From IMG/VR virus record IMGVR_UViG_3300031417_000415: a stretch of 64,000 nucleotides of DNA, one strand, 5' to 3'. Positions 18,194-57,964 of this stretch are shown here, piece by piece (position 1 is the stretch's first letter; each line of letters begins with the position of its first letter). The position numbers were made by a program, and so were the translations under genes. A model generated the notes under the pieces. That model did no database searches and was not told the origin of the DNA. It was given only the letters and a program-made list of their open reading frames with translations. This DNA is from a virus. Lineage: Duplodnaviria > Heunggongvirae > Uroviricota > Caudoviricetes.

Positions 18194-19852
18194 CTATTCG
18201 GATTTAGGCGTTGAAACACCTTTTGTTCTCAAACCAGACCGGTTAGTCCGCAACCATGCAGACGATCTCCGTGAGATGGACCACCGACAGTCAAGTCCGC
18301 GACACCGTCGCCGATTGGCTACGCATCGGTGCGGCCATGGTGCGTACCGGATATGCCGGCGGAGCGGACAGATCCGCCGGCGAAATCGAAGAGGTCATCA
18401 AGAAACGCTTCCCGGACCAGCCACTGGGAAGCTGGGCCGCGCACTGCGCGGCCTACGAGGCCAAGTCACTGAGGGCACGCGTGCCCAATGGGAGCATGGT
18501 GTTCGGCGGACGAGCCGAGCTGCTCCGCCGTCAGAAGGGGCTAATCTCCAGCAATATCTGGAAGGCGCGCCGCCACGGCCGCGCGCTGCCGATCATCGGC
18601 GACCGCACCCGATGGGGCAACCGACACTTCCGACTGTCGACCGACGCACGCAAATGCGTCATAACGTTCCTCAAGCACGAGGTGACTCTGGATCTGGTCG
18701 AAATGGCCGGCAAGCACGGCGCGCTGCTGCGCGCCATCGCCCTGCTCGCCGACGCCTGCCAGATCAGCGTACAGTTCTCGCTGACGCCGACGCACCTGAA
18801 CGTAACCTTCGACGAGATGGACCTGCGCCGGCTGCCGCCGGGCATGTCGCTCGAGGATGTGAAGATCCGCGAGCAGGGCGCGTCCCGCCGCGGGCGAAAA
18901 CGCAAGGACGCCTCGACGCACTATGCTGCGCACCGCATAAAGCACACCCCAGACCGGCCGGTGCACCCTGAGTGGCGTGATGCAGTACCTACCGTGGCTA
19001 CCCGCGCCATCGGCCTGGATCTAAACCCGGAATGGATCGGCATCTCCGTCATCCAGATCGACGGCGATCAACAGGATGCGGACCATGTCCGCATCCTCGA
19101 CCATGTCCTGCACCGCATCGCCGTCCCGTTCGCCGCCGAGGCCGCGAACATGACCCGTACCATGGCCAACGTGGCCGCTCAGATCATCAGTCTGGCACGC
19201 GCCTGGAACTGTGGCCTCGTCGTCCACGAGAACGGTCTCGGCAAGCTCGCCTGGTCCAAGAAATCCCGTTCCGGCCAGCAGCTGCAGACCGTGAACTACT
19301 GGTCCCGCAACGCGCTGATCGGCGGGCTGACCCGCCGCTGCAAGCTGGCGGACATAAGGTTTCTGCCAATCTGGGGTGGCTATTCCACCACGATCGGCAA
19401 CATGCTCTTCGAACTGCCTGACGCGTGCGCATCAGCAGCGGAGATCGCACGACGGGGCTTCGCCTCGACGTGCGGCATCAAGGACCGGTTTCCGGTTGTC
19501 CCAGTGCAGGTGGCTTCTCGCCGATGGAAGGATGAGAAGCTACCCACTGCCATGGTGAAGGCCCTGGCGAGCGCGGACAGCTGGCAGGCGGTCCACCGGG
19601 CAATCAAACCGGCGCAGGCCGGGACGCGCAAGCGTCCCGGCATTGGCTACCGTCGGCTGCATCCATTGTCCTCGAACATGGTACCCGGGCGCCTGCTCCG
19701 ACTTGGAGATACGGGCTACGCAGTGAACCGGCTTGGGAATGGAAAAGGAGTGAGCTGTTCGGCCCGCCCGGTTCGACTATCCAGAACGGTTCGAGATAGT
19801 TCGGACCGGGTGACGGTCAGCGTGAGCTGATTCCACACTCAAATCCGAATAG
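18194..19852 (+). mobile_element. 1.66 kb TIR-bounded element encoding a TnpB-like protein, with 10 bp target-site duplication GAAAACCAGG
   Basis: TIR-L CTATTCGGATTTAGG at 18194-18208 and TIR-R CTCAAATCCGAATAG at 19838-19852; direct repeat GAAAACCAGG at 18184-18193 and 19855-19864. Confidence 0.5.
18256..19830 (+). CDS. TnpB-like RuvC-fold nuclease (524 aa) with no recognisable zinc finger
   Basis: TnpB-like N-terminus; RuvC-I AIGLDLNPEWIGISV, RuvC-II LVVHENGLGKLAWS, RuvC-III DACASAAEIARRG; no CxxC..CxxC between II and III. Confidence 0.6.
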   Translation: MQTISVRWTTDSQVRDTVADWLRIGAAMVRTGYAGGADRSAGEIEEVIKKRFPDQPLGSWAAHCAAYEAKSLRARVPNGSMVFGGRAELLRRQKGLISSNIWKARRHGRALPIIGDRTRWGNRHFRLSTDARKCVITFLKHEVTLDLVEMAGKHGALLRAIALLADACQISVQFSLTPTHLNVTFDEMDLRRLPPGMSLEDVKIREQGASRRGRKRKDASTHYAAHRIKHTPDRPVHPEWRDAVPTVATRAIGLDLNPEWIGISVIQIDGDQQDADHVRILDHVLHRIAVPFAAEAANMTRTMANVAAQIISLARAWNCGLVVHENGLGKLAWSKKSRSGQQLQTVNYWSRNALIGGLTRRCKLADIRFLPIWGGYSTTIGNMLFELPDACASAAEIARRGFASTCGIKDRFPVVPVQVASRRWKDEKLPTAMVKALASADSWQAVHRAIKPAQAGTRKRPGIGYRRLHPLSSNMVPGRLLRLGDTGYAVNRLGNGKGVSCSARPVRLSRTVRDSSDRVTVSVS

Positions 19853-29761: not shown

Positions 29762-30109
29762 ATGAGCAAGCCGATCCCCGCGTCCGTCGAAGCCAACCGT
29801 GCGAAGTTCCGCGAGCAGGGCGTCGCCAGCAAGGCGGCACGCGCGCAGAAGCACGCAGAGCTGCTGGCCAGCCAGAAGGCGCTGGGCGCCGCGAACCGCG
29901 AGTCGCGCGCGACCGCGCACGCGCAGCTGATCGAATCGCAGAAGGCCGTCGGCGTCGCCAACGCGCCCGTCAAGGCGCAGGCCAAGGCCGACCGCATCGC
30001 CGGCGCGACCGCGCGCAACGAGCAGCTGTCGGCAGAGGCAGCCGAGCGCAAGTCGGCGCGCATGTCGGCACACGCCGAGCGCAACGAGTCGATGAAGAAG
30101 GTCGGCTGA
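29762..30109 (+). CDS. small Ala/Lys/Arg-rich helical protein, paralog B
   Basis: paralog of the 10453..10803 product; 3' 130 nt nearly identical. Confidence 0.5.
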   Translation: MSKPIPASVEANRAKFREQGVASKAARAQKHAELLASQKALGAANRESRATAHAQLIESQKAVGVANAPVKAQAKADRIAGATARNEQLSAEAAERKSARMSAHAERNESMKKVG

Positions 30110-31407: not shown

Positions 31408-32019
31408 TCACATGCCGTTCGCGTCCTTGTAGGCCTGCCACGCCTTCGCACGTTCGGCTGCGCTAGGAGGAACCGGCATCGGACGCATCTTCTCCTGCGG
31501 CAGCGGCCCCGACGAGCGAAGGGTCGCGACGGCCTGGTATACCGGCGCCTTCAGACCAGCTGTGCTGGCCTGCGAGCAGACGCGGCGGATCTCCGACGGC
31601 GCGACGCGCGACCTGATGGCCGGAACCTTCCCCGTAGGCGGACGGTCGTCGCGATCGGACCGACGTACCTCGATCACGGCGTAGTTCGCCCGGCCGCAGT
31701 GGAGATCGATCCTGTACACGTCGTATCCCGCCCCGCCGTTGAGCACCACGATGCGGCCGCCGGTAGCGTCGACGTCGATGAGCGCCGGTACTGATCTCCC
31801 CCCGACGACGTCCATCCGGACCGGCTTCCAGACGCCGATGCGGATCCAGGGAAGACCTACGGCCTGCTCCGCGGTCCCGCGCGCGAACGCGATGCCGCCA
31901 GCCGACACATGGCGAGGCGCCGACACCGGTGGCGTCACGGTGGAGCGGTCCCCGCCCGGACCGCAGGCGCAGGCAGACAGCGCAAGCCCCAGACCCGCTA
32001 CGATGCCGATCCTGTTCAT
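31408..32019 (-). CDS. lipoprotein (lipobox LSAC)
   Basis: minus-strand ORF; MNRIGIVAGLGLALSACACGP signal. Confidence 0.45.
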   Translation of the reverse strand: MNRIGIVAGLGLALSACACGPGGDRSTVTPPVSAPRHVSAGGIAFARGTAEQAVGLPWIRIGVWKPVRMDVVGGRSVPALIDVDATGGRIVVLNGGAGYDVYRIDLHCGRANYAVIEVRRSDRDDRPPTGKVPAIRSRVAPSEIRRVCSQASTAGLKAPVYQAVATLRSSGPLPQEKMRPMPVPPSAAERAKAWQAYKDANGM

Positions 32020-32093
32020 CCTCAAACTCCCTTGCAATCGGACTGTTTTAGGATAAGCGTCAGGATTCCACAAACGGGTTTCGGGGCGGAAAG

Positions 32094-33638
32094 ATGCGGT
32101 CGGTTTTCATTGCGAGGATGGTCCTCGCCGGTGCTTCCATACAGATGGCTGCGTCAAGCCCGGCGTGGGCAGCCATGCAGACGTCGCCCGATCAGGAATC
32201 GGTGCTCATGAGGCGCCCCATCGACGACCGCATCGGCCGCGCGGACATCCCGAGCAACAATCCCAACCCGAACCCCAATCCCGGCGGCGGCACAAACCCG
32301 ACCGACCCGACCGACCCGACCGACCCGACGGATCCGACGGATCCCAGCATTCCCACAGAGCAGCCGATCGAGGGCGGCAGCCACGATCCCGACCTAGTCA
32401 ACGACCCCGGCGATCCGGGCTGGGCTCCAGGCACCTACCAGTGGACCACAGGTCCATGGCAGGGTGCAGCGGTATGCGGCCAGAAGTCGCAGCTGACCCG
32501 CGACGTCGGCTGCCAGCGCATCATGCCCTTCTTCGGCGGCGGCGGCCCGATCGGCCGTATCGATCCCACGCTGACGGGCAAGCCCGCGGTGATGAACGCC
32601 TCGTGGGGGATGAGCACGGCGGACGGGCCACGGCTGTCGAACGGAGTATACGACCCCGCATCTTCGGGCGTGAAGCGGAAGCTGGCGCAGTTCGGAGGCC
32701 CGGACAGCGGAGGCGACTTCGTGGTGGAGGACGTGCCGGTCTCCTACTGCAGGGAGGTCGAGAACGAGATCGGACCGGCTCCCATCAACTCCTACAGCGG
32801 CACGAAGGGCGGCTGCCAGTACGATCCGGTGAAGACCGGATCGTCGGACTGGGCGCTGCCGCCCTACGCACCGGGAACGGCGAGCTGCTCGGCAAGTGCG
32901 TTCCGGATCAACCAGTACCGCTGCCAGGCATCGGACGGAAGTTCGGCTCCGCTGGCCTACTGCCTCGAGAACCTCTCCGAGGGCGGCGTCCGCAACGGTC
33001 AGCTGGTCACGCCCGAATACGGCAACTTCTCGGGCTGCACCGCACGCTGGCTCACGTACGTCGAGGACAACTACTGCCACAAGTCGGGAGACCTCTCCAA
33101 CGGATACGGCGACGACGGCCCCGTGCATACGGCCAACTACCAGTCGCGCTGCACACGGTCCGACGGCAAGGAGCTGACGGGCATCGACGAGGCCGCCTGT
33201 GCCGCCAGCGACCGTCCCTTCGACGGAGTGCAGGTCGTCGGAGCGTGCCACAAGCAGTACGCGGTCGACTACGAATATGCCTGCTTCGTGGACAATAACG
33301 ATGTCGTCGTCCACCAGGAGATCGGGTTCTACGACTACTACACGAAGGGCACCAAGATGTGCAACGACGCGGGCGCCACGTGCTGCTCGCTGCGTCAGGT
33401 CTCCAACAACAACTACAGCGGTGCTCCCTACCGTGCGTACGAGGTGATCGGCACGAAGGGCAAGGCGGTGTCGAATCCCGGATGGTACTTCGACGATCGC
33501 GCCAAGCGCATCAGCAGCGAGGGCGAGGGACCGTACTTCTACAACTACGGCGGCGGTCGTGGACGGTTCGAGCCCGACCAGTATGTCGGGGGCGTGATCG
33601 ATCCCGGTCCGGGCAACGGCGGCGGTCCCGACAACTGA
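32094..33638 (+). CDS. secreted Cys-rich protein with (PTD)5 repeat
   Basis: signal peptide; PTDPTDPTDPTDPTDPS; many Cys and Trp. Confidence 0.5.
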   Translation: MRSVFIARMVLAGASIQMAASSPAWAAMQTSPDQESVLMRRPIDDRIGRADIPSNNPNPNPNPGGGTNPTDPTDPTDPTDPTDPSIPTEQPIEGGSHDPDLVNDPGDPGWAPGTYQWTTGPWQGAAVCGQKSQLTRDVGCQRIMPFFGGGGPIGRIDPTLTGKPAVMNASWGMSTADGPRLSNGVYDPASSGVKRKLAQFGGPDSGGDFVVEDVPVSYCREVENEIGPAPINSYSGTKGGCQYDPVKTGSSDWALPPYAPGTASCSASAFRINQYRCQASDGSSAPLAYCLENLSEGGVRNGQLVTPEYGNFSGCTARWLTYVEDNYCHKSGDLSNGYGDDGPVHTANYQSRCTRSDGKELTGIDEAACAASDRPFDGVQVVGACHKQYAVDYEYACFVDNNDVVVHQEIGFYDYYTKGTKMCNDAGATCCSLRQVSNNNYSGAPYRAYEVIGTKGKAVSNPGWYFDDRAKRISSEGEGPYFYNYGGGRGRFEPDQYVGGVIDPGPGNGGGPDN

Positions 33639-33744
33639 TCATAGTCGCCCGAGCACGGACGGACGGGCCGGCATCCATCGGATGCCGGCCTTTTCCATGC
33701 CCGATACGCGGAACGGACCAGAACAGGCATCAAGGAGGAAAAAG

Positions 33745-34503
33745 ATGACGGACGTGCATTCCGACCCATGGCACCAGCTGGCCGAAGACATCGAGAACGG
33801 CTGCGCGGAGTTCAACCGCGACCGCATCGACGCGCGGCAGAGGCCGTTCCCCTTCCCCGTAGACGTGGTGCGTCGGCTGCTGCTCGTCCTGAAGGACGCG
33901 AGGCGCCCGCTTCCGGCATTCGACATCGTGACCGACGGTCCGGAATGGCGCCTCATGCTGCGCTGGACGCGGATCGGCGGCGAGGCGTACGTCACGGCTT
34001 CCAGGGACGACGTGATCGACGTTCGCGTCGCGCTGGACGGGCGCGTACTCGTGGACACGCAGGAGGCGCGCTATGCTTCGTTCGATCCGCAGCCGCTGCT
34101 GGACGCGCTGGACCACTTCACCGCGCTCAAGCAGGTCCTCGTGGTACGCCGTGACCTGAAGATGCGCCAGGGCAAGGCCTGCTCGCAGGCATCGCATGCT
34201 TCCGGCGAATTCATGCGCGAGCAGATCGTCGCGGCCATCCACCGCCACGACGATCTCAACTTCAGCGACGACGAGATCGAGTGGATGACGCTGGGCATGG
34301 CCAAGATCACCGTCCGGGCCGACACCGTAGAGCAGTTCGAGCAGGTGCAGGCCGACGCGCTGGCCCGGGGACTGAAGGTCCGTACCATCACGGACAGCGG
34401 GCGCACGGAGTTCGCCGGGGTGCCGACCATCACCGCGCTGGCGATCGGACCGACGCGCTCAGCCTATGTCGATCCTATCACTGGTGCAATGACCCTGCTG
34501 TAG
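33745..34503 (+). CDS. two-domain protein with C-terminal peptidyl-tRNA hydrolase PTH2 domain
   Basis: conserved AAGGAGGAAAAAG-ATG motif; LVVRRDLKMRQGKACSQASHAS and RTITDSGRTEFAGVPTITALAIGP match PTH2. Confidence 0.5.
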   Translation: MTDVHSDPWHQLAEDIENGCAEFNRDRIDARQRPFPFPVDVVRRLLLVLKDARRPLPAFDIVTDGPEWRLMLRWTRIGGEAYVTASRDDVIDVRVALDGRVLVDTQEARYASFDPQPLLDALDHFTALKQVLVVRRDLKMRQGKACSQASHASGEFMREQIVAAIHRHDDLNFSDDEIEWMTLGMAKITVRADTVEQFEQVQADALARGLKVRTITDSGRTEFAGVPTITALAIGPTRSAYVDPITGAMTLL

Positions 34504-34517
34504 GACCTTACGGACAG

Positions 34518-34528
34518 TTTCAGGATGA
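34518..34528 (+). promoter_or_regulatory. TTTCAGGATGA motif
   Basis: 62 nt upstream of the 34590 start. Confidence 0.3.
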
Positions 34529-34589
34529 GTCTTGACGAGGCAGTGGGCAAGGGGCATCGCGATGCGGACTCAGTTTCCGAAAGTCCACG

Positions 34590-35642
34590 ATGCGCCTTCT
34601 CGTCATGTCCATCCTGCTGTCCGCGACGGCGATCCCTGTATCAGCGCAGACGGCGGACACCATCGTCATGCGCAAGGTCATGGGGGCCATCGCCTACCCC
34701 AAAGACCTGAAGCCCAAGTACGGCTGGGCCTATGGGGAGTGGACATCACCGACGAACGCCTGCGGTACGACCGTGCAGACGCGCACGGTGACCTGCGTCA
34801 AGGGAGGCAGGCCCGAATCCCCCGATCTGTGCCGGCAGGCGCCACAGGCAGCCACGCGTACGGTCGAGGACCTGTCCAGCTGCGTGTACGACTGGAAGAC
34901 GACCTACAGCGGCTGGCAGGGAAGCTGCACTGCGGCGGCCACCCGGTCCGCAACCAGCGTCTGCCGTCGCTCCGACGGCACCGTCGTGGCCGACGCCTTA
35001 TGCGATTACACCAGCCGCCCCAAGACGGTGGAAACCGCCGCGAACTATGCTGGATGCGTCTACGACTGGAAGGTAGGGACATGGAGTCAGTGGAGCTCGA
35101 CGTGCTCCAACAGCAGCCTGCATACGCGGTCGGTGACCTGCGAGGCAATGACGGACGAAGGCACCGGCATCAGGGGGACGGTCGACAAGTGCAGGACGCC
35201 GCAGCCGGTCGACCGCGAGACGCAGAAGATCGTCACCGACTGCACAGGAATGCTGGTCAACGGCAACTTCGAGAGCGACATGACCGGCTGGACGCCCACA
35301 AGTCGTGCATCGATCAGTTCAACCGTCGCCCACGGCGGCAAGAAGTCGATGCAGATATACAACACGAGCTCGATCTCGCAGACCATCCAGACCGTCATAG
35401 GCGCAAGCTACAGCGTCACGTTCTACTCGTACCAGTACGGATCGAACGGAATACGTCTCATGATCGGCGGCAACCTGATCGCAGGAGGCCGGGGCTCCAA
35501 CGGCAACTACGAGTGGTTCCAGCGTTCCGGATCCTTCGTGGCGACCTCGGACACGACCAAGCTGACTTTCCTTGCAGAAGGCGGGTTCACCTTCACGTCC
35601 GAGTACGTAGACGACATCGTGGTTGCCCAGTCGCCCATGTAG
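34590..35642 (+). CDS. secreted protein with thrombospondin-type-1-like Cys/Trp repeats and C-terminal carbohydrate-binding-module-like beta domain
   Basis: signal peptide; repeats YGEWTSPTNACGTTVQTRTVTC / YDWKVGTWSQWSSTCSNSSLHTRSVTC; C-terminus NGNFES..GWT. Confidence 0.5.
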   Translation: MRLLVMSILLSATAIPVSAQTADTIVMRKVMGAIAYPKDLKPKYGWAYGEWTSPTNACGTTVQTRTVTCVKGGRPESPDLCRQAPQAATRTVEDLSSCVYDWKTTYSGWQGSCTAAATRSATSVCRRSDGTVVADALCDYTSRPKTVETAANYAGCVYDWKVGTWSQWSSTCSNSSLHTRSVTCEAMTDEGTGIRGTVDKCRTPQPVDRETQKIVTDCTGMLVNGNFESDMTGWTPTSRASISSTVAHGGKKSMQIYNTSSISQTIQTVIGASYSVTFYSYQYGSNGIRLMIGGNLIAGGRGSNGNYEWFQRSGSFVATSDTTKLTFLAEGGFTFTSEYVDDIVVAQSPM

Positions 35643-35682
35643 GCGGCCCCACCTGGCGGGGCCGCCCGTCGAGAGACGTCAG

Positions 35683-36639
35683 CTACCTAACGCCCATCCC
35701 TCCGGCCATCGCAGCCATGCGGACTGCGGGCGAAGGTGCGGTCCTCGTCGAATCGACATCCATCGAAGCCATCTGGACGGGAGCGCCGGAAGACGGCATC
35801 GCCCGGACCGCCTCCACGAGTTCCTTGCCGCCCGAGAACTTGATGCCCTTCGGCATGCCCGAGACCTCCCAGCCGGTCCTGTCGAACGTGGCCAGGATGT
35901 CCTTCTCGGAGATGCCCGGCTGCTTCCAGTCCATGTACGCCGCATAGGCCGCGGCCCGGGGCGTCGAGAACGAGGAGCCGACCACCTCGGCCGACCTGCC
36001 GACATAGGATCCCGGGAACACGAACTTCGTGAACTCCTGATAGCGCCTGTCCTTGGCTACGGAGCGACCGCCGCCGTCCTGTGCGATCGCGATCACCCCC
36101 TGGGAGGCCGCCGGATAGATGCCGGGGTCGTTCGTCTCGTTCGGCGTCGCGGCGAAGAGCTTCATGCCCCTAGCCTTGAACATGTCGGCGATCTTCTGGC
36201 CTTCGGTCTGGTCGGATACCGAGAAGGTGGTGACGGCGATGCTGATCCCCTTGCCTTCCAGATTCTCGAGCCCCTTGCGCAGCATGGCCTTGCTGAACAT
36301 CATCTCGCCGGTGCCCCCGTGCTTGATGAAGGGGTTCAGCGTATAGACCTCGATCGGAACGGTCCGGTCGATCTTGCGGATCTCCTCGACGAACGCCGTC
36401 GCCACGACGACGCCGTGGGAGGTCCGGCCGCTCTTGCCGACGGCCTCCCGCATCCCCGACGGCAGCTCGGGCGTCACGTCGATCAGCTTCGCGTTGTCGT
36501 CCCGGCAGTCCAGCCGGTCGGGCTGGATGTCGATGATCGCCACGCGGACGGGCCGTTCGCCGCCCTGCGTCTGCGCCATCGCCGGCGAGGCCACCGCGGC
36601 GAGCGCCATAGCGCCCGCCATCATTCCCGACTTCGACAT
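35683..36639 (-). CDS. subtilisin-like serine peptidase (S8) with signal peptide
   Basis: Asp (VAIIDIQ), His (HGVVVAT) and Ser (GSSFSTPRAAAYAA) motifs. Confidence 0.6.
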   Translation of the reverse strand: MSKSGMMAGAMALAAVASPAMAQTQGGERPVRVAIIDIQPDRLDCRDDNAKLIDVTPELPSGMREAVGKSGRTSHGVVVATAFVEEIRKIDRTVPIEVYTLNPFIKHGGTGEMMFSKAMLRKGLENLEGKGISIAVTTFSVSDQTEGQKIADMFKARGMKLFAATPNETNDPGIYPAASQGVIAIAQDGGGRSVAKDRRYQEFTKFVFPGSYVGRSAEVVGSSFSTPRAAAYAAYMDWKQPGISEKDILATFDRTGWEVSGMPKGIKFSGGKELVEAVRAMPSSGAPVQMASMDVDSTRTAPSPAVRMAAMAGGMGVR

Positions 36640-36651
36640 GCCGTTCCTCCC

Positions 36652-39600
36652 TTATCCAGTGCAGCTGCAGATGACGTTCTTGGATCCCGTAGTGGACGGA
36701 TACCCGCCTCCGTAAGATCGCTGAAGACCGTAGATCGTCCCGTAGACGCCGTTCTTCGACACGTCGCACGTTCCCGGATTGGTGCTGTTCGGCGTGTTCG
36801 AGAGATACTCGGGCCCACCGGACGCAGCGCCGTTGCTGAGCGCGTAGTACACCCACGGAATGGTTGTCATCGAGGTCGGCATGCGGCTGCTGCCCCAGCT
36901 CGTCGCGGCGCCGGACGAGCCATATCCCGGACCGCCAGCGGTCCAGCTGCACGACAGCGTGCAGGCCTGCGAGATCGTCCAGGGCTGACCACGGTTGACG
37001 CACTCCTCACCCGCCACGCTGGCGCCGTCGGAACGACGGCACAGGTTCATGCCCTGCGTCTTCGTACCGTTGGTGCACGCACCGAACGCGCCGTAGAAGG
37101 CCTGATAGGTATAGTACGTGCAGGCCTGCGAACGCGTCCATGGCTGACCGCGCGCGACGCACTCGTCGCCGGCGACGCTCGCACCGTCGGAACGCTGGCA
37201 CAGGTTCATGCCCTGCGTCTGGGTGCCATTGCTCTGGCACTCGCCGAAACCACCGTAGTACGCCGTGTAGCCGCAACCGGCGACGTTCGAGTAGCCCTGC
37301 GCACCGGCAGGCTGGCCGCCGCCGCACAGCGATCCGTCGACACGGGCCCCGTCAGAACGCTGGCACCACACGTCGCGGTACTCGGTGCCGGTCGTGCAGA
37401 CCGCCTGCTGGCCCGACCAGCCGCCTGCCTGCCACGAGTAGCCGCAACCCGAGAAGTTGGCGGTCTGGACCGACTGGGAAGTCGGAATACCCCGGTTCGA
37501 GCACTCGGCGATCGCAACATCGGCACCATCCGACCGACGACAGCCAGTCGCGTACTGAGTCGCCGTGGTATTTCCCGAACAGCTACTGGCGTAGTTGTAG
37601 CCGCTCCAGCCAGATACGGAATAGCCGCACGCCGCGTAGTTGGTATAGTTCTCGGTCGTCGGCGGCTTGCCGCCTCCGCAATAGGCCTCTGCCACGCGGG
37701 CACCGTCGGACCGGACGCAGGCGACGTCGCGGCTGTACGACGCGGTGCCGCAGACAGCCTGCTGTGCAGGGTAGCCGTAGGCGACCCAGCTGTAGCCGCA
37801 GGCCGAATAGTCGGCGAAGGTCTGAGAAGCAGCTGGCCTCGCGCCGGCGTTGCAGTAGCCTTCGGCGACCGTGGCACCGTCGGAGCGCTGGCACCATACG
37901 GACCGGGCCTGGCTGACCGATCCGCAGCTCTGCGCGGTGGTGCCCCAGCCGTTGTACGCCCAGCCGTACGAGCAGGCCGAATAGTCGGTGACGCCTTCGC
38001 CATCGGGCGGCCGCGTGCCGGGATTGCAGTTGCCCGCATCCACCGTGGCGCCGTCCGAGCGGGTGCACCACACCGCACGATAGCGGGCCGAAGCGCCGCA
38101 GGCCGCGGCAGGAACGCCCCAGCCGCCGGTGCTCCAGGTATAGCCGCACCCGTCGTAGATGCCCGTGGTCTCGGAGCGCGACGGTACGGCGACGCCGCGA
38201 TCGGTGCAGTACTGGTCGCCGGCGAACACATTGTCGCCCGCGCGGTAGCAGGTCGCGGTCCGCGTCCGGGTGGCCGACGCCGAGCAGTGACTGTTGTAGT
38301 CGGTCCAGCCGCTGACCGAGAAATACCCCGGGCAGGCGTTGGTGTAGTTCGCCCCGGTCTGGGTCTCGGTCAGCAATATACCGCGCGCGGTGCACTCGCC
38401 CGCAGCGACGATCGTTCCGTCGGAGCGCTGGCACGAATAGGTACGGGTGCGATTCGCCGTGCCCGAGCAGGCGTTGTCCCACCCGCTCCACGCCGACGGG
38501 CTGACGCGCGAGTAGCCGCACTGGTCATACACGGCAGCAGTCTCGCTGTTGTTCAGCGTCGGACCAAATCCCTCACGGGTCGCATCAGGTCGGGCAGCGC
38601 ACTGCGCATTGTCAATCTTGCGATAACAGTTGCCGCCGCCGGCGTCAGACCAGTAGTTGGCAGAGCCAACGACACAGCGTTCCTCATGGCGAAAACAGCC
38701 TATGTCACGGGTACGCGTGGCATTGGTGGAGCAGTGGCTATTCCAGTCGGTGAACCCGGAAGCCGCATACCAGTACGGAGCACAGGAGCCGTAGTTGGCG
38801 ATCGTCTGAGACGTGGTCGGCTTGGCAGCGGTGCATTCCGCGTCGCCGACCGTCTGACCATCTGAACGCTGGCATGTCACCGAACGGGTCTGCACGGCCG
38901 CAGCCGAGCAGCCGCTGTCCGGGGAACCCCAGGCGCCGACGTTCCACGTGCGGGCGCACCCGGCGGTCTGATAGGACGCCTGCGAGGTATCGGGCTTGGC
39001 GGTGGCGCAGAAGCTGTCTGCCACCGTACGACCGTCGGAGCTCTGGCACGTTACGGGTCGGGTCTGGGTCGCGCTACCACACGTTGCCGACCATGCGCCG
39101 AACGACCCCACGGACCAGCCGTAGGTGCAGGTCGAATAATCGGTCGCCGCCTGCTGCGCGGCGGGACGGCTGCCGGCGGCACACGATCCGTCGGCGACCG
39201 TCTGGCCGTCAGATCGCAGACAGGTGACCGAACGGTTCTGCACGGTCGGCCCACATGCCGGAACGGGCGAGCCGAAGGCACCGGCATTCCAGGAATAGCC
39301 GCATCCGCTCGTCTCGTAGGTCGTTTTCGAGAGATCGGGCTTCGCACCCGAACAGGAGGCGTCGGCGACAGTACGGCCATCGGAGGAAAGACAGGTGACG
39401 CTGCGCGTGGAGGTCGCGCTGCCGCAGGTCGTCGACGGCGCGCTCCAGGCGGCCGGGTTCCAGGAGTAGGTGCAGGTCTGGTAGTCGGTGACGGCCTCGC
39501 TGACGGCGGGCTTCGTTCCCGCATCGCACGATCCGTCAGCGACGACGTCGCCGTTGGAGCGCACGCACTGCACGCTGCGCGACCTGGACGATGGGCCGCA

Positions 39601-40503
39601 CGCAGGCGCGACGGCGCCCCAGGCCTGCTCCTTCCAGGAATAGCTGCACTGGCCGTACTGGTCGCCGGTCTCGCTGACGGCCGGCTTGGCGCCAGCTGCG
39701 CCGCACATGGCATCAGCGACCTCGTCACCGTTAGAACGGAGGCAGACGACCTCGCGGGTACGGGTCGCTCCCGTCTGGCACGACGACGACCACGGGGTCC
39801 ACGCCTTCTCCTTCCAGGAGTAGCCGCACTGGCCGTAGCGATCCTCGGTCTGCGATGCCGCAGGCTTCTTGCCCGAAGCCGAGCACTCGGCATCCGTGAC
39901 CTTCTCGCCGTTCGACCGCTCGCACCACACGTTGCGGGTCGAGGTCGCGGCAGTCTGGCACTCGCCCGAGAACGCCGACCATACGTCGTTCTTCCACTCG
40001 TACGAGCAGGTGCGCAGGTCGCGGACCTCGCGGCTCGTATCTGGGGCAGGAGCCGGGCACTGGTCGTTGGGGACCGTCTTGCCGTCGCCGCGCAGGCAGG
40101 TCAGCTCGCGGGTCTCGACCACCTGGCCGCAGCCGGAGGCATCGGTCCACTCGCCGGGCTGCCAGGTGTAGTCGCAGCCCTGGATGTCGTAGCACGACTG
40201 GTTGTCGGCAGGACGGTTCGGGCCGCAGTTGACCTCCGGAGAACCATGCTTGCCGTTCATCATGCACTGGACGGCGCGGGTCTGCTGACCGGCGCCGCAG
40301 CTGTTCGAGCACTGGCTCCATGCATCCGGGATCCACGCGTAGGTGCGGGTCTTCGGATCGAGCGAGCGGCGCATCACGACGACGCCCGAGTCCGCCTGCG
40401 CATACGCCGCGGTGGACTGCAGCATGCCAATTGCGATGAGTGACGCTGCTGCATACGCGGCAAGACGCATAGTTCGGACTCCCGATGGATTTGGGAGAAG
40501 CAT
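36652..40503 (-). CDS. giant secreted protein (1283 aa) of about 20 tandem thrombospondin-type-1-like repeats
   Basis: signal peptide; repeated unit W..WS.TCGSATQTR.VTC..SDG.TVAD..C...KP; the long sense-strand ORF is R/A/G-rich junk. Confidence 0.55.
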   Translation of the reverse strand: MLLPNPSGVRTMRLAAYAAASLIAIGMLQSTAAYAQADSGVVVMRRSLDPKTRTYAWIPDAWSQCSNSCGAGQQTRAVQCMMNGKHGSPEVNCGPNRPADNQSCYDIQGCDYTWQPGEWTDASGCGQVVETRELTCLRGDGKTVPNDQCPAPAPDTSREVRDLRTCSYEWKNDVWSAFSGECQTAATSTRNVWCERSNGEKVTDAECSASGKKPAASQTEDRYGQCGYSWKEKAWTPWSSSCQTGATRTREVVCLRSNGDEVADAMCGAAGAKPAVSETGDQYGQCSYSWKEQAWGAVAPACGPSSRSRSVQCVRSNGDVVADGSCDAGTKPAVSEAVTDYQTCTYSWNPAAWSAPSTTCGSATSTRSVTCLSSDGRTVADASCSGAKPDLSKTTYETSGCGYSWNAGAFGSPVPACGPTVQNRSVTCLRSDGQTVADGSCAAGSRPAAQQAATDYSTCTYGWSVGSFGAWSATCGSATQTRPVTCQSSDGRTVADSFCATAKPDTSQASYQTAGCARTWNVGAWGSPDSGCSAAAVQTRSVTCQRSDGQTVGDAECTAAKPTTSQTIANYGSCAPYWYAASGFTDWNSHCSTNATRTRDIGCFRHEERCVVGSANYWSDAGGGNCYRKIDNAQCAARPDATREGFGPTLNNSETAAVYDQCGYSRVSPSAWSGWDNACSGTANRTRTYSCQRSDGTIVAAGECTARGILLTETQTGANYTNACPGYFSVSGWTDYNSHCSASATRTRTATCYRAGDNVFAGDQYCTDRGVAVPSRSETTGIYDGCGYTWSTGGWGVPAAACGASARYRAVWCTRSDGATVDAGNCNPGTRPPDGEGVTDYSACSYGWAYNGWGTTAQSCGSVSQARSVWCQRSDGATVAEGYCNAGARPAASQTFADYSACGYSWVAYGYPAQQAVCGTASYSRDVACVRSDGARVAEAYCGGGKPPTTENYTNYAACGYSVSGWSGYNYASSCSGNTTATQYATGCRRSDGADVAIAECSNRGIPTSQSVQTANFSGCGYSWQAGGWSGQQAVCTTGTEYRDVWCQRSDGARVDGSLCGGGQPAGAQGYSNVAGCGYTAYYGGFGECQSNGTQTQGMNLCQRSDGASVAGDECVARGQPWTRSQACTYYTYQAFYGAFGACTNGTKTQGMNLCRRSDGASVAGEECVNRGQPWTISQACTLSCSWTAGGPGYGSSGAATSWGSSRMPTSMTTIPWVYYALSNGAASGGPEYLSNTPNSTNPGTCDVSKNGVYGTIYGLQRSYGGGYPSTTGSKNVICSCTG

Positions 40504-47437: not shown

Positions 47438-48103
47438 ATGGACTACAAATATCCGCGGACATATCATCTGCCGACCTCGCCCGGTCTGCAGAACGACGAC
47501 AGGCGGCTGCCGAGCCTCCGGCCCTTCGTGGGCAGGCGGGTGATCGGTACCGAGAAGATCGACGGCGAGGGCACGACGATGACGCCCGAGAAGACCTACC
47601 CCAGGTCGCCGGACGGCCGCTATCATCCGTCGCGCGACCTGATGAAGGCGTTCCACGCCACCAAGAAGGCCGACATCCCGCACGACTGGCGGATCTCGGG
47701 CGAGTACGGCTATGCGCGCCACTCGATCGCCTACACGCGCGATCTGGGCAACGCGCTGCCGGCATGGTTCCTGGGCTTCGGCGTATGGGACGAGCGCAAC
47801 GTGCTGCTCGGCTGGGACCAGACGCTCGAGGTGTTCGAGATGCTGGACATCGCGCCCGTCCCGGTGCTGTACGACGGCATCTACTACGACGGCCTGGCCG
47901 ACGATCTTGCGAAGTCGATCGATCCGCTCCGCCAGGAGGGCTTCGTGCTCAGCCTCGCGGATCCGATGCCGTACCCGGACGGCGCGGGCGACAGCGGCCG
48001 CTTCTTCACCGGCAAGGCCAAGTGGGTGCGGCACGGACACGTCCAGACCAATCGCCACTGGATGAGCGGCCCCGTCGTGCCGAACGAGCTCGTGCAGGGC
48101 TGA
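47438..48103 (+). CDS. RNA ligase (covalent nucleotidyltransferase superfamily, small Rnl-type)
   Basis: motif I EKIDGEG, III ISGEYGY, IV EGFVLS, V FFTGKAKWVRH. Confidence 0.55.
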   Translation: MDYKYPRTYHLPTSPGLQNDDRRLPSLRPFVGRRVIGTEKIDGEGTTMTPEKTYPRSPDGRYHPSRDLMKAFHATKKADIPHDWRISGEYGYARHSIAYTRDLGNALPAWFLGFGVWDERNVLLGWDQTLEVFEMLDIAPVPVLYDGIYYDGLADDLAKSIDPLRQEGFVLSLADPMPYPDGAGDSGRFFTGKAKWVRHGHVQTNRHWMSGPVVPNELVQG

Positions 48104-48711: not shown

Positions 48712-49662
48712 ATGCGCGCCGTGATATTCGACGTCGACGGCACACTGGCCGACCCGTCGCACCGACTTCACCACCTCGACGGCATCGACAAGGACTGGAA
48801 GTCGTTCCACCGCGAGGCCGAGAACGATCCGGTGATCGAAGGCATCGCCGAGATGGCGCGCATCCTGTACCGGACCTGCACCGAGGGCCTGGGCATCGAC
48901 GCCGTGCTGATCGTGACCGCGCGTCACGACGATCCCGCCATCAAGGCGACGCTGATCGCATGGCTGGAGATGGCGGAGATCCCGTATCACCGCATCTACA
49001 TGCGGGCGGACGAGGACACGCGACCCGACCACGTGATCAAGGCGGAAATCCTCGAGCGCATCCTCGAGGATGGCTACGAGCCGATCGGCGTCTTCGACGA
49101 CCGGCCCGAAGTGGTGCGCATGTGGCGCGACCACGGCATTCCTACGTTCCAGGTGGCGCCCGACGAGCAGCCAGCCACCCAGTATGCCGGCCAGACGCTC
49201 CTGCACATGCTGATCGGCCCATGCGGCGCCGGCAAGTCCACCTACGTGGCGGCTAACTACAGACCCGAGGACGTCATCTCGGTCGACACGCTCCGCGTCC
49301 AGCTCTTCGGCAACATGGGCCACAGCCCGGAGGCGCTGATCCGGGTCTGGAAGTACGCGCACGGCCTTGTTCGGGCGCGCCTCGAGGCGGGCGTGTTCAC
49401 GGTGCTGGACGCGACCAACCTCGACCCCGAGGACCGCGAGAAGATCCTGCGCCTCGTGCCGCGCAACGTCTTCATAAACTACATCGTGATCGACCGCGCC
49501 TACGACGACAAGGTGCGCGACCGCGACTGGCGCGACGAGGACATGGTGCAGAAGCAGCATCGCCTCTTCCGCCGCCACGAGGACGTCATCCTCGCAGGCG
49601 ACGACCATCCCTGGGTCGTGGTCAAGGACAAGCGGGATCCGCGCTCCAAGACGCGCAAGTAG
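48712..49662 (+). CDS. polynucleotide kinase/3'-phosphatase (N-terminal HAD phosphatase plus C-terminal P-loop kinase)
   Basis: conserved GAAGGAAAAGCAA-ATG motif; AVIFDVDGTLAD (DxDGT) and GPCGAGKST Walker A. Confidence 0.6.
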   Translation: MRAVIFDVDGTLADPSHRLHHLDGIDKDWKSFHREAENDPVIEGIAEMARILYRTCTEGLGIDAVLIVTARHDDPAIKATLIAWLEMAEIPYHRIYMRADEDTRPDHVIKAEILERILEDGYEPIGVFDDRPEVVRMWRDHGIPTFQVAPDEQPATQYAGQTLLHMLIGPCGAGKSTYVAANYRPEDVISVDTLRVQLFGNMGHSPEALIRVWKYAHGLVRARLEAGVFTVLDATNLDPEDREKILRLVPRNVFINYIVIDRAYDDKVRDRDWRDEDMVQKQHRLFRRHEDVILAGDDHPWVVVKDKRDPRSKTRK

Positions 49663-52498: not shown

Positions 52499-53359
52499 AT
52501 GTCGAACTACGATTCCATCGCCAAGAAGGGCCGGAGCATGATCGGCTGCGGGGTAATCCTGGCCATGCTGGCGGTTGGCCTCATCGCCCTACGCCTGTGC
52601 GTGCAGCGAGTGTCACCGGACGCGGGGGTAGCGGCAGTGCTGATCGAAAAGCCGATCTTCTTCGGTCACGGCGGCGTAAGCCCGGTCGCGATCACCACCG
52701 GCTCGAGCTACGTCTGGACCACGACCGACGTCGTGATGGTCAACATGAAGCCGATACAGGAAACGGTCGACTTCAACGATCTGATGTCGTCGGACGGCAT
52801 CCCGCTCCACTTCGACAGTGCCATCCGCCTGCAGGTAGTCGATCCCGTGCAGCTGATCGCGCGGTTCGGTACCGAATGGTATCGCAACAACCTGGCGGTC
52901 GAGTTCAGCAACCGGGTACGTCAGGCCGTCCGCAAGCACGGAATGAACGAGACGGCGATCAACACCACGGCAATCGACGCGATCGACGCCGAGGTCACGG
53001 CGCAGATGCTGCAGTACATCAGGTCGTCGGGCCTGCCCATCCGTCTGATCAAGATCACCGTCGGCCGCGCTAGCCCGCCGGATTCGATCAAGAACCAGCG
53101 TATCACCACGGCGAACGAACAGCAGCGGCAGATCACCGAGGTCCAGACGCAGCGCGCCGAGGTCACCCGCAAGGGGGCCGAGGAAGCACGTGCCGACGCG
53201 GACAACGCCTATCGTCAGCGCCTGGGCCTCGACTCGCAGCAGTTCGTCGATCTGCAGCGGATCGGCATGATGCGCGACGTCTGCAAGCCCAAGGACGGCG
53301 AGAACAGCCCTTGCACGTTCATCATCGGCAACGGCACCGCGCTGGTGAATACCAAGTAA
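52499..53359 (+). CDS. SPFH/band-7 (prohibitin/stomatin-like) membrane protein
   Basis: conserved CAGAAGGAAAAAAGA-ATG motif; N-terminal TM plus SPFH-like core and coiled-coil tail. Confidence 0.6.
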   Translation: MSNYDSIAKKGRSMIGCGVILAMLAVGLIALRLCVQRVSPDAGVAAVLIEKPIFFGHGGVSPVAITTGSSYVWTTTDVVMVNMKPIQETVDFNDLMSSDGIPLHFDSAIRLQVVDPVQLIARFGTEWYRNNLAVEFSNRVRQAVRKHGMNETAINTTAIDAIDAEVTAQMLQYIRSSGLPIRLIKITVGRASPPDSIKNQRITTANEQQRQITEVQTQRAEVTRKGAEEARADADNAYRQRLGLDSQQFVDLQRIGMMRDVCKPKDGENSPCTFIIGNGTALVNTK

Positions 53360-53362
53360 TGC

Positions 53363-53397
53363 GATGCGCCCCTCCTCGGAGGGGCGCATTTTTAATG
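53363..53397 (+). terminator. rho-independent terminator GCGCCCCTCC-TCGG-AGGGGCGC + ATTTTTAAT
   Basis: GC hairpin plus T-run. Confidence 0.55.
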
Positions 53398-53448
53398 CAG
53401 GACGCCTCGAAAAGCGGCAGTCGGATACATCCACTGGAAGGAAAAAAG

Positions 53449-54486
53449 ATGTCAGCCCACGGCTCCAAGAAGGCGCTGTTCGCAGCCCTCGCCGCGAATG
53501 CGGGGATAGCCGTCGCCAAGTTCGGTGGCGCGGCATACACCGGCTCGTCAGCTATGATGTCGGAAGGCGTCCATAGCCTGGTCGACACCGGCAACCAGAT
53601 CCTTCTGCTGTTCGGGATGAAGGACTCGAGCCGCCAGCCCGACGCGTCACACCCGTTCGGCTACGGCCTACGCCTCTACTTCTGGGGGTTCGTAGTCGCG
53701 ATGATGGTATTCGCGCTTGGCTCGCTCGTCGCCATCACTGAAGGCTACGAGAAGGTTCGCGAGCCGCACGAGATCCACAACGCCGTCGTGAACTACATCA
53801 TCCTGGCCTTCGCAATCGTACTCGAAGGAGCCTCACTGCGCGTCGCGATGCGTCAGGTCGCCGTACAGGCGAAGAAGCGCGGAATGACCATGCTGCGCAC
53901 CATCCAGACTCACCGGGACCCGACAATCTTCGCTGTGATCTTCGAGGAGACCGCAGCACTCGCAGGCCTGATCATCGCCATGGTCGGCCTCGCCGCGTCG
54001 CAGATCTTCGCAATGCCCGTCATCGACGGCTACACATCGATCGGCATCGGCGTCGTGCTGGCAATCACCTCGTTCAGTCTCGCGCGCAAGTGCTACAGCC
54101 TGATGACCGGCCAGGCTGCGGATCCCGAGCTGTCGGACCGGCTATGGGACATCCTGGAAGGCATCAAGCTCGTCAAGGAGGTCAACGAGATCCGGACGAT
54201 GCACTTCGGCCCCGACGAGGTCACGATGCTCGCTTCGGTCGACTACCACGACGAGTACAACGGCAAGCCGATCACGAGCCGTACGCTTGAAAGCATCACC
54301 TCGGATGTCAGCGAAACCATGCGCGAGGAGTTTCCTGCCACGAAGCTGCGCATCTACATCGAGCCGCAGTCGAACACCCGCCACCTCGAGGAGCTCGAGG
54401 AAATGGGCGAGGAAGCCGACGCGCTCTACACCGAGGAGGAGCTGGCGGCGGAGGCCGCCGAGGCGGAAGGCCGTTCGGCTGCGTGA
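53449..54486 (+). CDS. cation diffusion facilitator (CDF) family metal efflux transporter
   Basis: conserved GGAAGGAAAAAAG-ATG motif; HSLVDTGN and HPFGYGL signatures, six TM helices, acidic C-terminal domain. Confidence 0.7.
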   Translation: MSAHGSKKALFAALAANAGIAVAKFGGAAYTGSSAMMSEGVHSLVDTGNQILLLFGMKDSSRQPDASHPFGYGLRLYFWGFVVAMMVFALGSLVAITEGYEKVREPHEIHNAVVNYIILAFAIVLEGASLRVAMRQVAVQAKKRGMTMLRTIQTHRDPTIFAVIFEETAALAGLIIAMVGLAASQIFAMPVIDGYTSIGIGVVLAITSFSLARKCYSLMTGQAADPELSDRLWDILEGIKLVKEVNEIRTMHFGPDEVTMLASVDYHDEYNGKPITSRTLESITSDVSETMREEFPATKLRIYIEPQSNTRHLEELEEMGEEADALYTEEELAAEAAEAEGRSAA

Positions 54487-56284: not shown

Positions 56285-56425
56285 GGGACGTGTCTTGGGA
56301 CGTCCAATGTCGACCCGCCGACAGCGTGCTGCAGATCTGCCACCGGCTGTCTTGGGACAGTCAATGTCGACTGCCGACAGCGCACGACAGATGCGCGACC
56401 GGCTGTCTTGGGACAGCCATACTTC
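56285..56425 (+). repeat. about 2.5 tandem copies of a 55 bp repeat (CCGGCTGTCTTGGGACAGTCAATGTCGACTGCCGACAGCG...) upstream of clpP
   Basis: direct repeats at about 56289, 56344 and 56399, each with a CTGTC-TTGG-GACAG hairpin. Confidence 0.4.
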
Positions 56426-56464
56426 CCGCGCGAGCGGGCATTACCCACACCTCAGGAGAACACC

Positions 56465-57112
56465 TTGAACCTCGACAACTTCGCATCGCCCTACAGCTTG
56501 GCTCCCCAGGGCATGGGCCTCGTCCCCATGGTCCTCGAGCAGTCCAACCGCGGCGAGCGCTCCTTCGACATCTTCTCGCGTCTCCTGCGCGAGCGCATCA
56601 TCTTCGTGACCGGCGGCGTCGAGGACAACATGGCCTCGCTGATCTGCGCCCAGCTTCTCTTCCTCGAGTCTGAGAACCCGAAGAAGGACATCTACATGTA
56701 CATCAACTCGCCGGGCGGCGTCGTCACGGCGGGCATGGCGATCCATGACACCATGCAGTACATCCGTCCGGACATCTGCACCGTCTGCGTGGGCCAGGCA
56801 GCGTCGATGGGCAGTCTCCTGCTTGCGGCGGGAACACCCGGCAAGCGCATCGCGATGGTCAACTCGCGGATCATGATCCATCAGCCTTCGGGCGGCGCTC
56901 AGGGCATGGCGTCGGACATCGAGATCCAGGCGCGCGAGATCCTGCGCATGCGCACGAGCCTGAACAACATGTACGTGCAGTACACGGGCCAGCCGCTCGA
57001 CGAGATCGAGCGTAAGATGGACCGCGACACGTTCCTGGAAGCCGACGAGGCCAAGGCGTTCGGTCTCGTCGACCAGGTCTTCGACAAGCGGCCGCTGCCG
57101 GACGCGGCCTGA
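56465..57112 (+). CDS. clpP: ATP-dependent Clp protease proteolytic subunit ClpP (probable TTG start)
   Basis: [23 protein letters not shown]...[12 protein letters not shown]...GQAASMGS...MIHQPSGG; highly similar to alphaproteobacterial ClpP; RBS AGGAGA before TTG. Confidence 0.8.
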
Positions 57113-57733: not shown

Positions 57734-57964
57734 ATGCCCAAGCATCTCGTGACCATGCTGGTCGGCCGCATCGTCGAGGCCGAGACCGCCGAGGAGGCCA
57801 ACGCGCTTGCAAGCCGACCCTTCCTCCTGGGAGCGGTGCCGGGAGTCGTCGGCATCGCTCTTTCAGGCACCCGCCTCGCCTTGCCGCAGGACGAGGACGG
57901 GTCCATCCAAGAGCGCATCCATGCGCTTCCTCCCCAGGTCAAGGAGACCACCGATGCTGTTTGA
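57734..57964 (+). CDS. small hypothetical protein
   Basis: RBS GGAGAAC. Confidence 0.3.
   Translation: MPKHLVTMLVGRIVEAETAEEANALASRPFLLGAVPGVVGIALSGTRLALPQDEDGSIQERIHALPPQVKETTDAV

Follow-up and report, generated by a model that had tools for sequence, protein, structure and literature searches.

Thrombospondin type-1 repeats (TSRs) are textbook modules of eukaryotic matrix and adhesion proteins. What do long arrays of them do, next to a subtilisin-like protease, on DNA deposited as a tailed virus? The question is raised by the IMG/VR record IMGVR_UViG_3300031417_000415, of which a stretch of 64,000 nucleotides (nt), here called the window, was analysed. It encodes a large TSR-array protein, two smaller members of the same family (350 and 514 amino acids, aa) and a subtilase of 318 aa. 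The three open reading frames (ORFs) behind an original prediction, those of the large protein, the subtilase and the 350-aa protein, were all found in place. We read the TSR proteins as Sec-exported, disulfide-stabilised adhesive fibres, which would be matured by the dedicated subtilase and carried as cargo by a giant element. Judged from sequence data, this reading has an even chance of being right.

The large gene has the following parts:

36652..40503, minus strand: large TSR-array gene, an ORF of 1283 aa with its stop codon at 36652-36654, identified by Pfam match and homologues
40399..40470, minus strand: predicted Sec signal peptide MRLAAYAAASLIAIGMLQSTAAYA, read from the sequence, with signal peptidase I cleavage after AYA
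40366..40380, minus strand: conserved N-terminal motif VVMRR, from family comparison
36961..40347, minus strand: 19 tandem TSRs (aa 53-1181), from segmentation and alignment
36655..36960, minus strand: C-terminal tail "type A" of ~100 aa, containing Cys and ending in ...NVICSCTG, from sequence comparison

A ribosome-binding site (RBS), GGGAG, precedes the second ATG at 40470, and the public gene call on an identical contig gives a protein of 1272 aa. The true start is therefore probably 40470. The predicted mature protein has ~130 kDa, an isoelectric point of 5.4 and 6.7% Cys. Its homologues show N-termini of the same signal-peptide type.

In Pfam, the large protein matched TSP1_ADAMTS (PF19030) with 185.3 bits (cut-off 23.8, E=2.1e-55) in 13 stretches, and its other matches were to weaker families of the TSP1 clan only. 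Since all matches were confined to this clan, the repeats are of the predicted TSP1 type and not PKD, GPS or another bacterial repeat. Chance is excluded by the E-values and by the 158 homologues described below. A hidden Markov model (HMM) built from the repeats themselves recovered 19 domains in the protein. The repeats measure ~57 aa (51–62 aa, with a single one of 88 aa); the predicted tandem array was thus recovered, with its dimensions corrected from about 20 repeats of 45–55 aa. The consensus was [GST]Y.W....W.....C(G)...TR.V.C.RSDG..V.d..C....kP......Y..C.

Four Cys per repeat are invariant in the alignment, and repeats 2–19 keep this four-Cys pattern. Repeat 1 alone has the full animal-type six-Cys motif WSQCSNSCGAGQQTRAVQC (W..WS.CS.SCG.G.Q.R.V.C), and repeat 10 has a 30-aa insert carrying two additional Cys. 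The six-Cys pattern behind the three disulfides of TSP1 is thus lacking in 18 of the 19 repeats. The domain match of the predicted Cys/Trp fold held, with four Cys instead of six in these 18 repeats. By alignment with repeat 1, the Cys missing from repeats 2–19 are C1 and C5, which reportedly pair with each other in thrombospondin-type TSRs (so Tan et al. are said to have found in 2002). Repeats 2–19 would then be a two-disulfide variant of the TSR. In total the protein has 84 Cys in even, repeat-periodic spacing, and such periodicity, taken at face value, requires oxidative folding. The mean pairwise identity among the 19 repeats was 38.5%, with only the last two reaching 78%; given a mean of ~38%, the repeats of the array are old.

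The sole match in PDB sequence searches, with a single sequence and with the repeat profile, was a TSR of human THSD7A (profile E=5e-5). The family PF19030 has been described as a TSR subtype with one Trp layer missing and a hydrophobic residue in place of Arg (10.1101/779553), and the window consensus fits this description. In the alignment, the conserved aromatic pair (Y.W....W) and TR.V.C.R sit in the expected TSR strands. AlphaFold2 (AF2) modelled the last TSR as beta-strands with a predicted local distance difference test score (pLDDT) of 86–90; the fold search with this model of mixed quality gave nothing significant.

Downstream of the array gene lies the subtilase:

36640..36651, minus strand: intergenic spacer of 12 nt with the subtilase RBS GGGAGGA, from the sequence
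35683..36639, minus strand: gene of the 318-aa S8-like subtilase, predicted to be exported and without propeptide, from fold, profile and catalytic residues
36529-36531, minus strand: catalytic D37, predicted from the S8 alignment
36415-36417, minus strand: catalytic H75, predicted from the S8 alignment
36139-36141, minus strand: oxyanion N167, predicted from the S8 alignment
35971-35973, minus strand: catalytic S223, predicted from the S8 alignment

The two genes are co-oriented and tightly spaced. Their description as translationally coupled was an overstatement, as there is a 12-nt gap with a strong RBS of its own and no overlap.

The Pfam S8 (PF00082) score of the window subtilase was below threshold (14.4 vs 21.8 bits), NCBIfam gave only weak matches to QhpE and mycosin, and the PDB sequence search gave none. 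An AF2 model made from ten homologues (pLDDT 71, predicted template modelling score 0.74) had only subtilases among its top 50 Foldseek matches (E down to 1.8e-9, probability 1.0, template modelling score 0.5–0.6). A profile of the family, searched against 1.84 billion representative sequences, first returned ~45 relatives with a full length of ~320 aa and then classical S8 enzymes with 98–187 bits. Four relatives exceeded the Pfam S8 cut-off (P0131, 25.9 bits; P0135, 49.3; P0158, 26.1; P0168, 24.1). The residues D37, H75, N167 and S223 align with IDSG, HGT, GN and GTS of true S8 proteins, and their columns are conserved in 30, 29, 31 and 31 of 31 family members, respectively. The same tetrad is retained in the subtilases of the related loci L010 and L024. 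Alignment and model together place the 318-aa protein in a divergent, propeptide-less branch of peptidase family S8, with a predicted activity, and the subtilisin-like neighbour of the original prediction was thus confirmed by fold, profile and catalytic residues.

The catalytic domain is followed by just ~40 residues, and Pfam gave no autotransporter match. The C-terminal residue was Arg in 40 of 46 representative relatives, following a Met/Ala-rich stretch, e.g., ...RMAAMAGGMGVR (35683-35730). This terminus might serve in sorting or, being product-like, act as an autoinhibitory peptide. Neither the single protein nor the family alignment found relatives in IMG/VR or in 185,579 species genomes.

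Among the structural neighbours of the S8 model are PatA and PagA, two proteases of peptide maturation. Together with the weak QhpE match and the regular size of the repeats, they would fit a polyprotein precursor, in which the subtilase cuts the 19-repeat array into small disulfide-rich peptides in a kexin-like or multi-core manner. However, no dibasic or other conserved cleavage motif lies between the repeats, where a conserved Cys abuts the next repeat; the repeats are diverged in sequence, and some members combine just three repeats with a large tail of other sequence. Without cleavage motifs between the repeats, a polyprotein role is extremely unlikely.

As had been predicted, the family is rare, but it cannot be called unexpected: the large protein had at least 158 metagenomic homologues at E<=0.001. 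Some relatives carry the NCBI name "thrombospondin type-1 domain-containing protein", so automated annotation already recognises bacterial TSR proteins. Of the best 120 homologues, about 90 had the N-terminal motif, located 5–10 residues after the predicted cleavage site. The exact form [VIL][VILM]MR[RK] was present in 64 of the 120 and the variant xFRVP in ~20, and in seven more the gene call begins at the motif's own Met. All three TSR proteins of the window carry it (VVMRR, IVMRK and VLMRR). In the window and loci L001–L010, the motif followed a signal peptide only in TSR-family proteins.

Gene callers often start TSR genes at the Met of the MRR motif (P0006, P0007, P0024, P0032 and others). 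The 476-aa public call of the 514-aa window ORF begins there and loses the signal peptide. The NCBI models of Sphingomonas sp. 3-13AW are likewise clipped, with an in-frame upstream signal peptide visible in the DNA. The flanks of the 3-13AW gene had no significant match to the window outside the TSR gene.

We found a TSR gene followed by an S8-like gene in six independent loci (the window, L009, L010, L012, L014 and L024), and the operon thus recurs in related genomes, as the original prediction had asked to be checked. The spacers were 9–21 nt in L009, L012, L014 and L024, and 64 nt in L010. Compared with the window, L014 and L012 have similar tails (64%) and S8 proteins (57–71%), with arrays only ~35% identical. 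In L010 and L024 the N-terminus (63–71%) and the array (52%) are closer, the tails are unrelated and the S8 proteins are only 25–40% identical. From these mosaic identities it follows that tail and protease travel as a 3' module. Such modular inheritance fits a functional link between the two; physical adjacency could also explain it.

Two narrower ties were tried. One between the N-terminal motif and the S8 partner was rejected, as L009 combines FRVP with S8 and loci without S8 keep MRR. A pairing of particular tails with particular S8 proteins was partly rejected: S8 genes stand beside at least three unrelated tail types, yet tail and S8 co-vary.

The subtilase could also be independent of the TSR protein, with host envelope, nutrients or competitors as its targets, and merely share the operon. 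In favour of this, an S8 neighbour is lacking at half of the TSR loci sampled, the ~45 representative S8-like clusters (50% identity) have neighbourhoods that lie outside the comparison, and physical linkage can explain the co-variation. On the other side, the pairing holds while S8 identity falls from 76% to 25%, in differing neighbourhoods and with very short spacers. The TSR/S8 pair is often the only unit on its strand and so behaves as one insertion. We therefore regard an independent protease as unlikely.

The remaining family members and features of the cluster are:

34590..35642, plus strand: short family member of 350 aa, with signal peptide, IVMRK motif, three TSRs and a tail
34719-35243, plus strand: the three TSRs of the 350-aa protein, found with the HMM built from the large protein
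35244-35639, plus strand: CBM-like/DUF642-like tail (CBM, carbohydrate-binding module) of the 350-aa protein, from sub-threshold profiles and tail homology
32094..33638, plus strand: divergent third member of 514 aa, from repeat HMM, BLASTP and motif
31408..32073, minus strand: predicted lipoprotein with lipobox LSAC, divergent from the 514-aa gene, from ORF and strain co-presence
35642..35666, between two convergent stop codons: GC-rich 9-bp hairpin GGCGGCCCC, 7-nt loop, GGGGCCGCC, from the sequence

The 350-aa protein matched TSP1_ADAMTS with 35.8 bits (E=1e-8). Its tail reached DUF642 in Pfam (E=1.3e-5, 25.5 vs 27 bits) and choice-of-anchor C in NCBIfam (E=3.7e-6, 27.3 vs 120 bits), both below threshold. 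It shares 28–42% identity with tails of long TSR proteins, among them that of P0083, a protein with a precomputed PF02018 (CBM_4_9) annotation. The prediction of a convergent second TSR protein with a CBM-like domain thus held.

The cluster proved larger than described, its named genes being joined by a degenerate third member at 32094-33638. This 514-aa protein has a signal peptide, the VLMRR motif, a Pro/Thr/Asn-rich linker, degenerate TSR-like segments and a Cys-rich C-terminal part. It gave three weak segments with the repeat HMM (full-sequence E=2.3e-6) and BLASTP matches to the TSR regions of homologues (1e-8 to 1e-4); the Pfam scan was without match. Whether the lipoprotein gene belongs to the TSR module is uncertain. 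The hairpin is a candidate bidirectional terminator that lacks a T-run and was therefore missed in the scan for consensus terminators; promoter and terminator scans of the window stayed at background level.

Across the family, C-terminal tails fell into at least 42 unrelated clusters among 123 proteins. P0020 and P0021 have tails with 64–65% identity to the type A tail and arrays with only ~35% identity to that of the window. Searched alone with a word index, the type A tail gave no matches, though full-length homologues contain it. Such extreme C-terminal polymorphism on a conserved scaffold, with recombination between array and tail, would also be expected of a bacteriocin or polymorphic-toxin-like weapon built from an N-terminal translocation motif, a long stalk and a variable C-terminal effector. 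The acidic-hhhMRR segment at the N-terminus loosely recalls what we take to be a TonB box. Yet no toxin or immunity match was found in Pfam, NCBIfam or PADLOC, and their lack makes a bacteriocin role highly unlikely. In addition, the product of the downstream gene is a protease with a signal peptide and not an immunity protein of small size, CBM-like binding domains form several of the tails, and tail A is 64% conserved between distant elements.

The strains most similar to the window (92–98% identity; L001 and L004–L008) differed in gene content across 31408-35642. The lipoprotein and 514-aa genes were absent together from L001 and L004–L007, which have a gene of 174–184 aa instead, and the 350-aa gene was absent from L001. 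Diversifying selection or hypervariability of the large TSR gene was considered and rejected, the ratio of nonsynonymous to synonymous divergence (dN/dS) between strains being 0.17. Synonymous divergence (dS) was 0.37 in the TSR gene vs 0.09–0.14 in neighbouring genes. High dS combined with low dN/dS marks the TSR gene as an allele that is older or recombinant and subject to purifying selection; it is no target of mutagenesis. The strain pattern, as far as sequence comparison goes, indicates allele exchange and not hypermutation.

How would such proteins work? Signal peptides were read from the sequence of all three TSR proteins and of the subtilase. In the fibre reading, a family protein has four parts: a cleavable signal peptide, the N-terminal hhMR[RK] motif, a rigid stalk of 3–26 TSRs and an exchangeable C-terminal head. 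The motif may be a sorting or anchoring element. The proteins would fold in the periplasm with the help of host Dsb enzymes, and would then be displayed or released as adhesins for glycans or cell surfaces, with a CBM-like head in the case of the 350-aa protein. If each TSR spans ~5 nm, the large fibre would be roughly 90 nm long. The subtilase, presumably co-transcribed and periplasmic, would serve as a dedicated maturation or release protease that cuts at the C-terminal head or close to it, much as SphB1 does with FhaB. Adhesion, the route of display and cleavage of the TSR protein by the protease are what we infer from this arrangement.

The extracellular adhesion of the original prediction thus agrees with the export signals on all proteins, and adhesion itself is plausible. 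An adhesin-like logic is suggested by the at least 42 tail types on a conserved scaffold, some of them CBM-like, by the siting of Azospirillum relatives in a pilus operon and by another window gene, with a YadA anchor (both described below).

Several observations weigh against fibres with a dedicated protease. No route across the outer membrane was found, and the NCBIfam sorting-signal models gave no match. The type A tail was modelled by AF2 with a pLDDT of 30–50, and its fold search was empty. Six other TSR-family loci had no S8 neighbour, so the family in general can do without the protease. Presence of S8 was uncorrelated with the N-terminal motif. Finally, the co-variation of tail and S8 may be mere physical linkage, since the tail codons abut the S8 gene.

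Known systems resemble parts of this arrangement. Bordetella FhaB is matured by the subtilisin-like SphB1, and Neisseria NalP is comparable; in these cases a large exported adhesin meets a dedicated protease of family S8. SphB1 and NalP are lipid-modified autotransporters anchored by a beta-barrel, and FhaB is a beta-helix exported by two-partner secretion. The 318-aa protein, in contrast, consists of the catalytic domain alone plus a short conserved peptide at its C-terminus, and a TpsB-like gene is absent here. The likeness concerns how the pair may work and not family membership. LapA and SiiE, with their Ig-like/BIg arrays, and YadA-type adhesins share the principle of a binding head held out on a stalk of numerous small beta-rich repeats. 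They differ in repeat fold and in having type I or type V secretion signals, which are absent from the window TSR proteins. The window fold would depend on disulfides, not on calcium or trimerisation.

The carrier of these genes was called phage-like in the original prediction, with the cluster as a possible host-range module; this found no support. The window has 66% G+C and nearly all of its plausible genes on the plus strand. Over 20,957 bp it is 100% identical to the JGI contig Ga0308169_10000012 (552,210 bp), and an identical subtilase occurs on contigs of up to 1,059,898 bp. A second TSR and subtilase pair was found on a 505,866-bp contig of the same sample and also on a 1,057,871-bp contig from elsewhere. 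Since 552 and 506 kb add up to 1.058 Mb, we infer that both contigs belong to one element of ~1.06 Mb, of which the 552-kb contig is probably half and which has at least two TSR and subtilase pairs. This element would be made mostly of one-strand ORFans.

Among 57 window proteins, Pfam and PHROGs revealed no capsid, portal, terminase or tail gene, in a scan that covers 64 kb out of the 552 kb or more of the element. ClpP alone matched a "head maturation protease", and there was one weak match to a "virion structural protein" (5e-6). The TSR and S8 proteins had no PHROG match. In 50,697 phage records there was neither a megablast match of 15 kb nor a tblastn match of the TSR protein. We detected no tRNA and no Rfam match in the window, and its PADLOC defence-system scan was empty.

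The assignable genes included R2K ATP-grasp, HAD_SAK_2, RNA ligase, PNKP, ClpP, PTH2, TnpB, a YadA-anchor adhesin, a cation-efflux protein and an ADP-ribosylglycohydrolase. Two tandem TSR genes also occur on a TARA Oceans contig, whose ClpP, RNA ligase and PNKP are 79, 69 and 62% identical to those of the window, respectively.

The named records of related elements are circular plasmids of 0.3–0.5 Mb from cultured Alphaproteobacteria. Erythrobacter aureus YH-07 has a TSR gene on a circular plasmid of 408 kb (L019), and a named relative of the TSR family is found on the 347-kb plasmid p1 of Sphingosinicella sp. BN140058. On the Azospirillum megaplasmids (A. oryzae NZ_CP054622.1 and Azospirillum sp. 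TSA2s NZ_CP039651.1; L018 and L021), TSR proteins are encoded between traA and dsbC/traC. In view of the plasmid relatives and of the missing phage hallmarks in the window, we call the carrier a giant extrachromosomal element and not a phage. Of the possible carrier classes (huge phage, megaplasmid or other), a phage setting appears doubtful. The YadA-anchor protein implies a diderm host, which is probably alphaproteobacterial.

Could the TSR array nevertheless decorate the virion of a huge phage as a fibre or host-range module, with the subtilase as virion maturation protease? The window is rich in ORFans and nearly single-stranded in gene orientation, with RNA ligase, PNKP, ClpP and PTH2 of jumbo-phage type. 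The nearest phage relatives of the RNA ligase belong to phages of 310–440 kb, and a conserved base, a repeat stalk and a variable tip resemble tail fibres. However, Sec signal peptides are present in all members and oxidative folding is needed. The virions of tailed phages assemble in the cytoplasm. Signal peptides and disulfides (84 Cys) thus make a virion role very unlikely. To this come the searches above, without a PHROG match for TSR or S8, a TSR protein in phage records, a relative of the S8-like partner among IMG/VR viral contigs, or a capsid, terminase or portal gene within the 64-kb window. The related elements, moreover, were deposited as plasmids with ParB, flagellar, chemotaxis or pilus genes.

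Several further genes of the carrier and its relatives were recorded. A set for RNA repair and translation rescue (R2K ATP-grasp, RNA ligase, PNKP with HAD phosphatase and kinase, ClpP and PTH2) is found at 51-875, 47438-48103, 48712-49662, 56408-57112 and 33682-34503. The PTH2 peptidyl-tRNA hydrolase carries a ~145-aa N-terminal extension. The 962-aa protein encoded at 5457-8345 (plus strand) ends in a YadA-like membrane anchor (E=5e-10); this adhesin of trimeric-autotransporter type adds a second class of surface protein to the element. An IS605-family TnpB (OrfB_IS605, Cas12f-like TNB domain) lies at 13061-14320 on the minus strand, opposite to its neighbours. The 524-aa ORFan at 18256-19830 (plus strand) has homologues of 38–40% identity on circular Acetobacter plasmids of 526 and 471 kb. 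It has eight matching places in the 526-kb plasmid record of A. persici, which also bears chemotaxis and type IVb pilus operons. Two small genes at 10441-10795 and 29762-30109 are paralogous; the L001/L003 copy of the latter (115 aa) matches the former at ~82% DNA identity. A CDF cation-efflux transporter (53311-54486) and an ADP-ribosylglycohydrolase (57807-58841) are cellular-type cargo among ORFans. The YH-07 plasmid (1-50000) encodes a flagellar basal-body/export cluster, MotAB, ThyA/DHFR/MazG, ParB, three DNA methyltransferases and a strawberry-notch-like helicase. In Azospirillum, the insert in the F/H-type conjugative type IV secretion operon comprises one or two TSR proteins and a 1192-aa hypothetical protein.

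Do the repeats point to eukaryotic partners? In the motif Y/W....W...C.G...TR.V.C......C....(K/R)P.....C they align with THSD7A. They differ from the TSRs of ADAMTS proteins and THSD7A in that 18 of 19 lack C1 and C5. The window proteins also lack the metalloprotease, CUB and PLAC partner domains of ADAMTS. Their N-terminal motif and tails are specific to the bacterial family, and their genes are located on a bacterial extrachromosomal element. Exported TSR proteins outside animals are also known from apicomplexans, whose adhesins TRAP, CSP and MIC2 attach via TSR modules (PMC3417536). These have one or few TSRs combined with a vWA domain, a transmembrane helix and a motor-linked cytoplasmic tail, whereas the window family has long arrays, no transmembrane segment and polymorphic tails.

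The closest named bacterial comparison is provided by the Azospirillum proteins WP_136705937.1 and WP_136705936.1. They have the same repeat subtype (53–58 bits per repeat with the window HMM), are exported, end in a Cys-rich tail and are encoded on large extrachromosomal replicons. Unlike the window proteins, they have only 2–3 repeats after an unrelated N-terminal region of ~290 aa, and neither an hhMRR motif nor an S8 partner.

It is conceivable that the TSR proteins are effectors or adhesins aimed at a eukaryotic partner or predator, such as a protist, alga, plant or animal matrix, and acquired from eukaryotes by horizontal transfer. Such mimicry would fit the complete animal-type motif of repeat 1, the best solved match being human (THSD7A), the attachment of apicomplexans to host cells by TSR adhesins (PMC3417536) and the confinement of the family to few element lineages. 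The Azospirillum copies, however, lie within an operon for conjugation between bacteria, and the eukaryotic glycosylation motifs WxxW and CxxS/TCxxG are missing from 18 of the 19 repeats; we consider eukaryote-directed mimicry improbable.

More tentatively, and as a reading that is on balance unlikely, a hitherto undescribed alphaproteobacterial lineage of elements of 0.3 to ~1.06 Mb may have domesticated a eukaryote-derived TSR scaffold as a modular surface-fibre system that controls host adhesion. The components of the system might then be an N-terminal signal, specific to the family, for sorting or anchoring, a binding head that can be swapped, and a mini-subtilase that ends in Arg and co-evolves, an equally tentative suggestion. 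The contacts so made could, on the same speculative footing, include ones that promote element transfer or interactions with eukaryotes.

Literature searches turned up no study of TSR proteins from bacteria or phages, of a phage or extrachromosomal element of such kind at megabase scale, or of strain 3-13AW. The domain itself is known; new are the architecture of the family with its N-terminal motif and polymorphic heads, the putative repeat variant with two disulfides and the dedicated mini-subtilase. TSRs thus form a sizeable, fast-recombining exported family on very large bacterial extrachromosomal elements, with a dedicated miniature subtilase in one clade. As three cultured strains carry members, namely E. 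aureus YH-07, Sphingosinicella sp. BN140058 and A. oryzae KACC 14407, their function is directly testable. If they are indeed element-controlled adhesins, they would represent a new means for giant plasmids or phage-like elements to reshape host surfaces. They would also be a clean case of inter-domain transfer and minimalisation of a eukaryotic fold, from three disulfides to two. The ~1.06-Mb carrier, with its largely unassigned genes, may be the bigger story.

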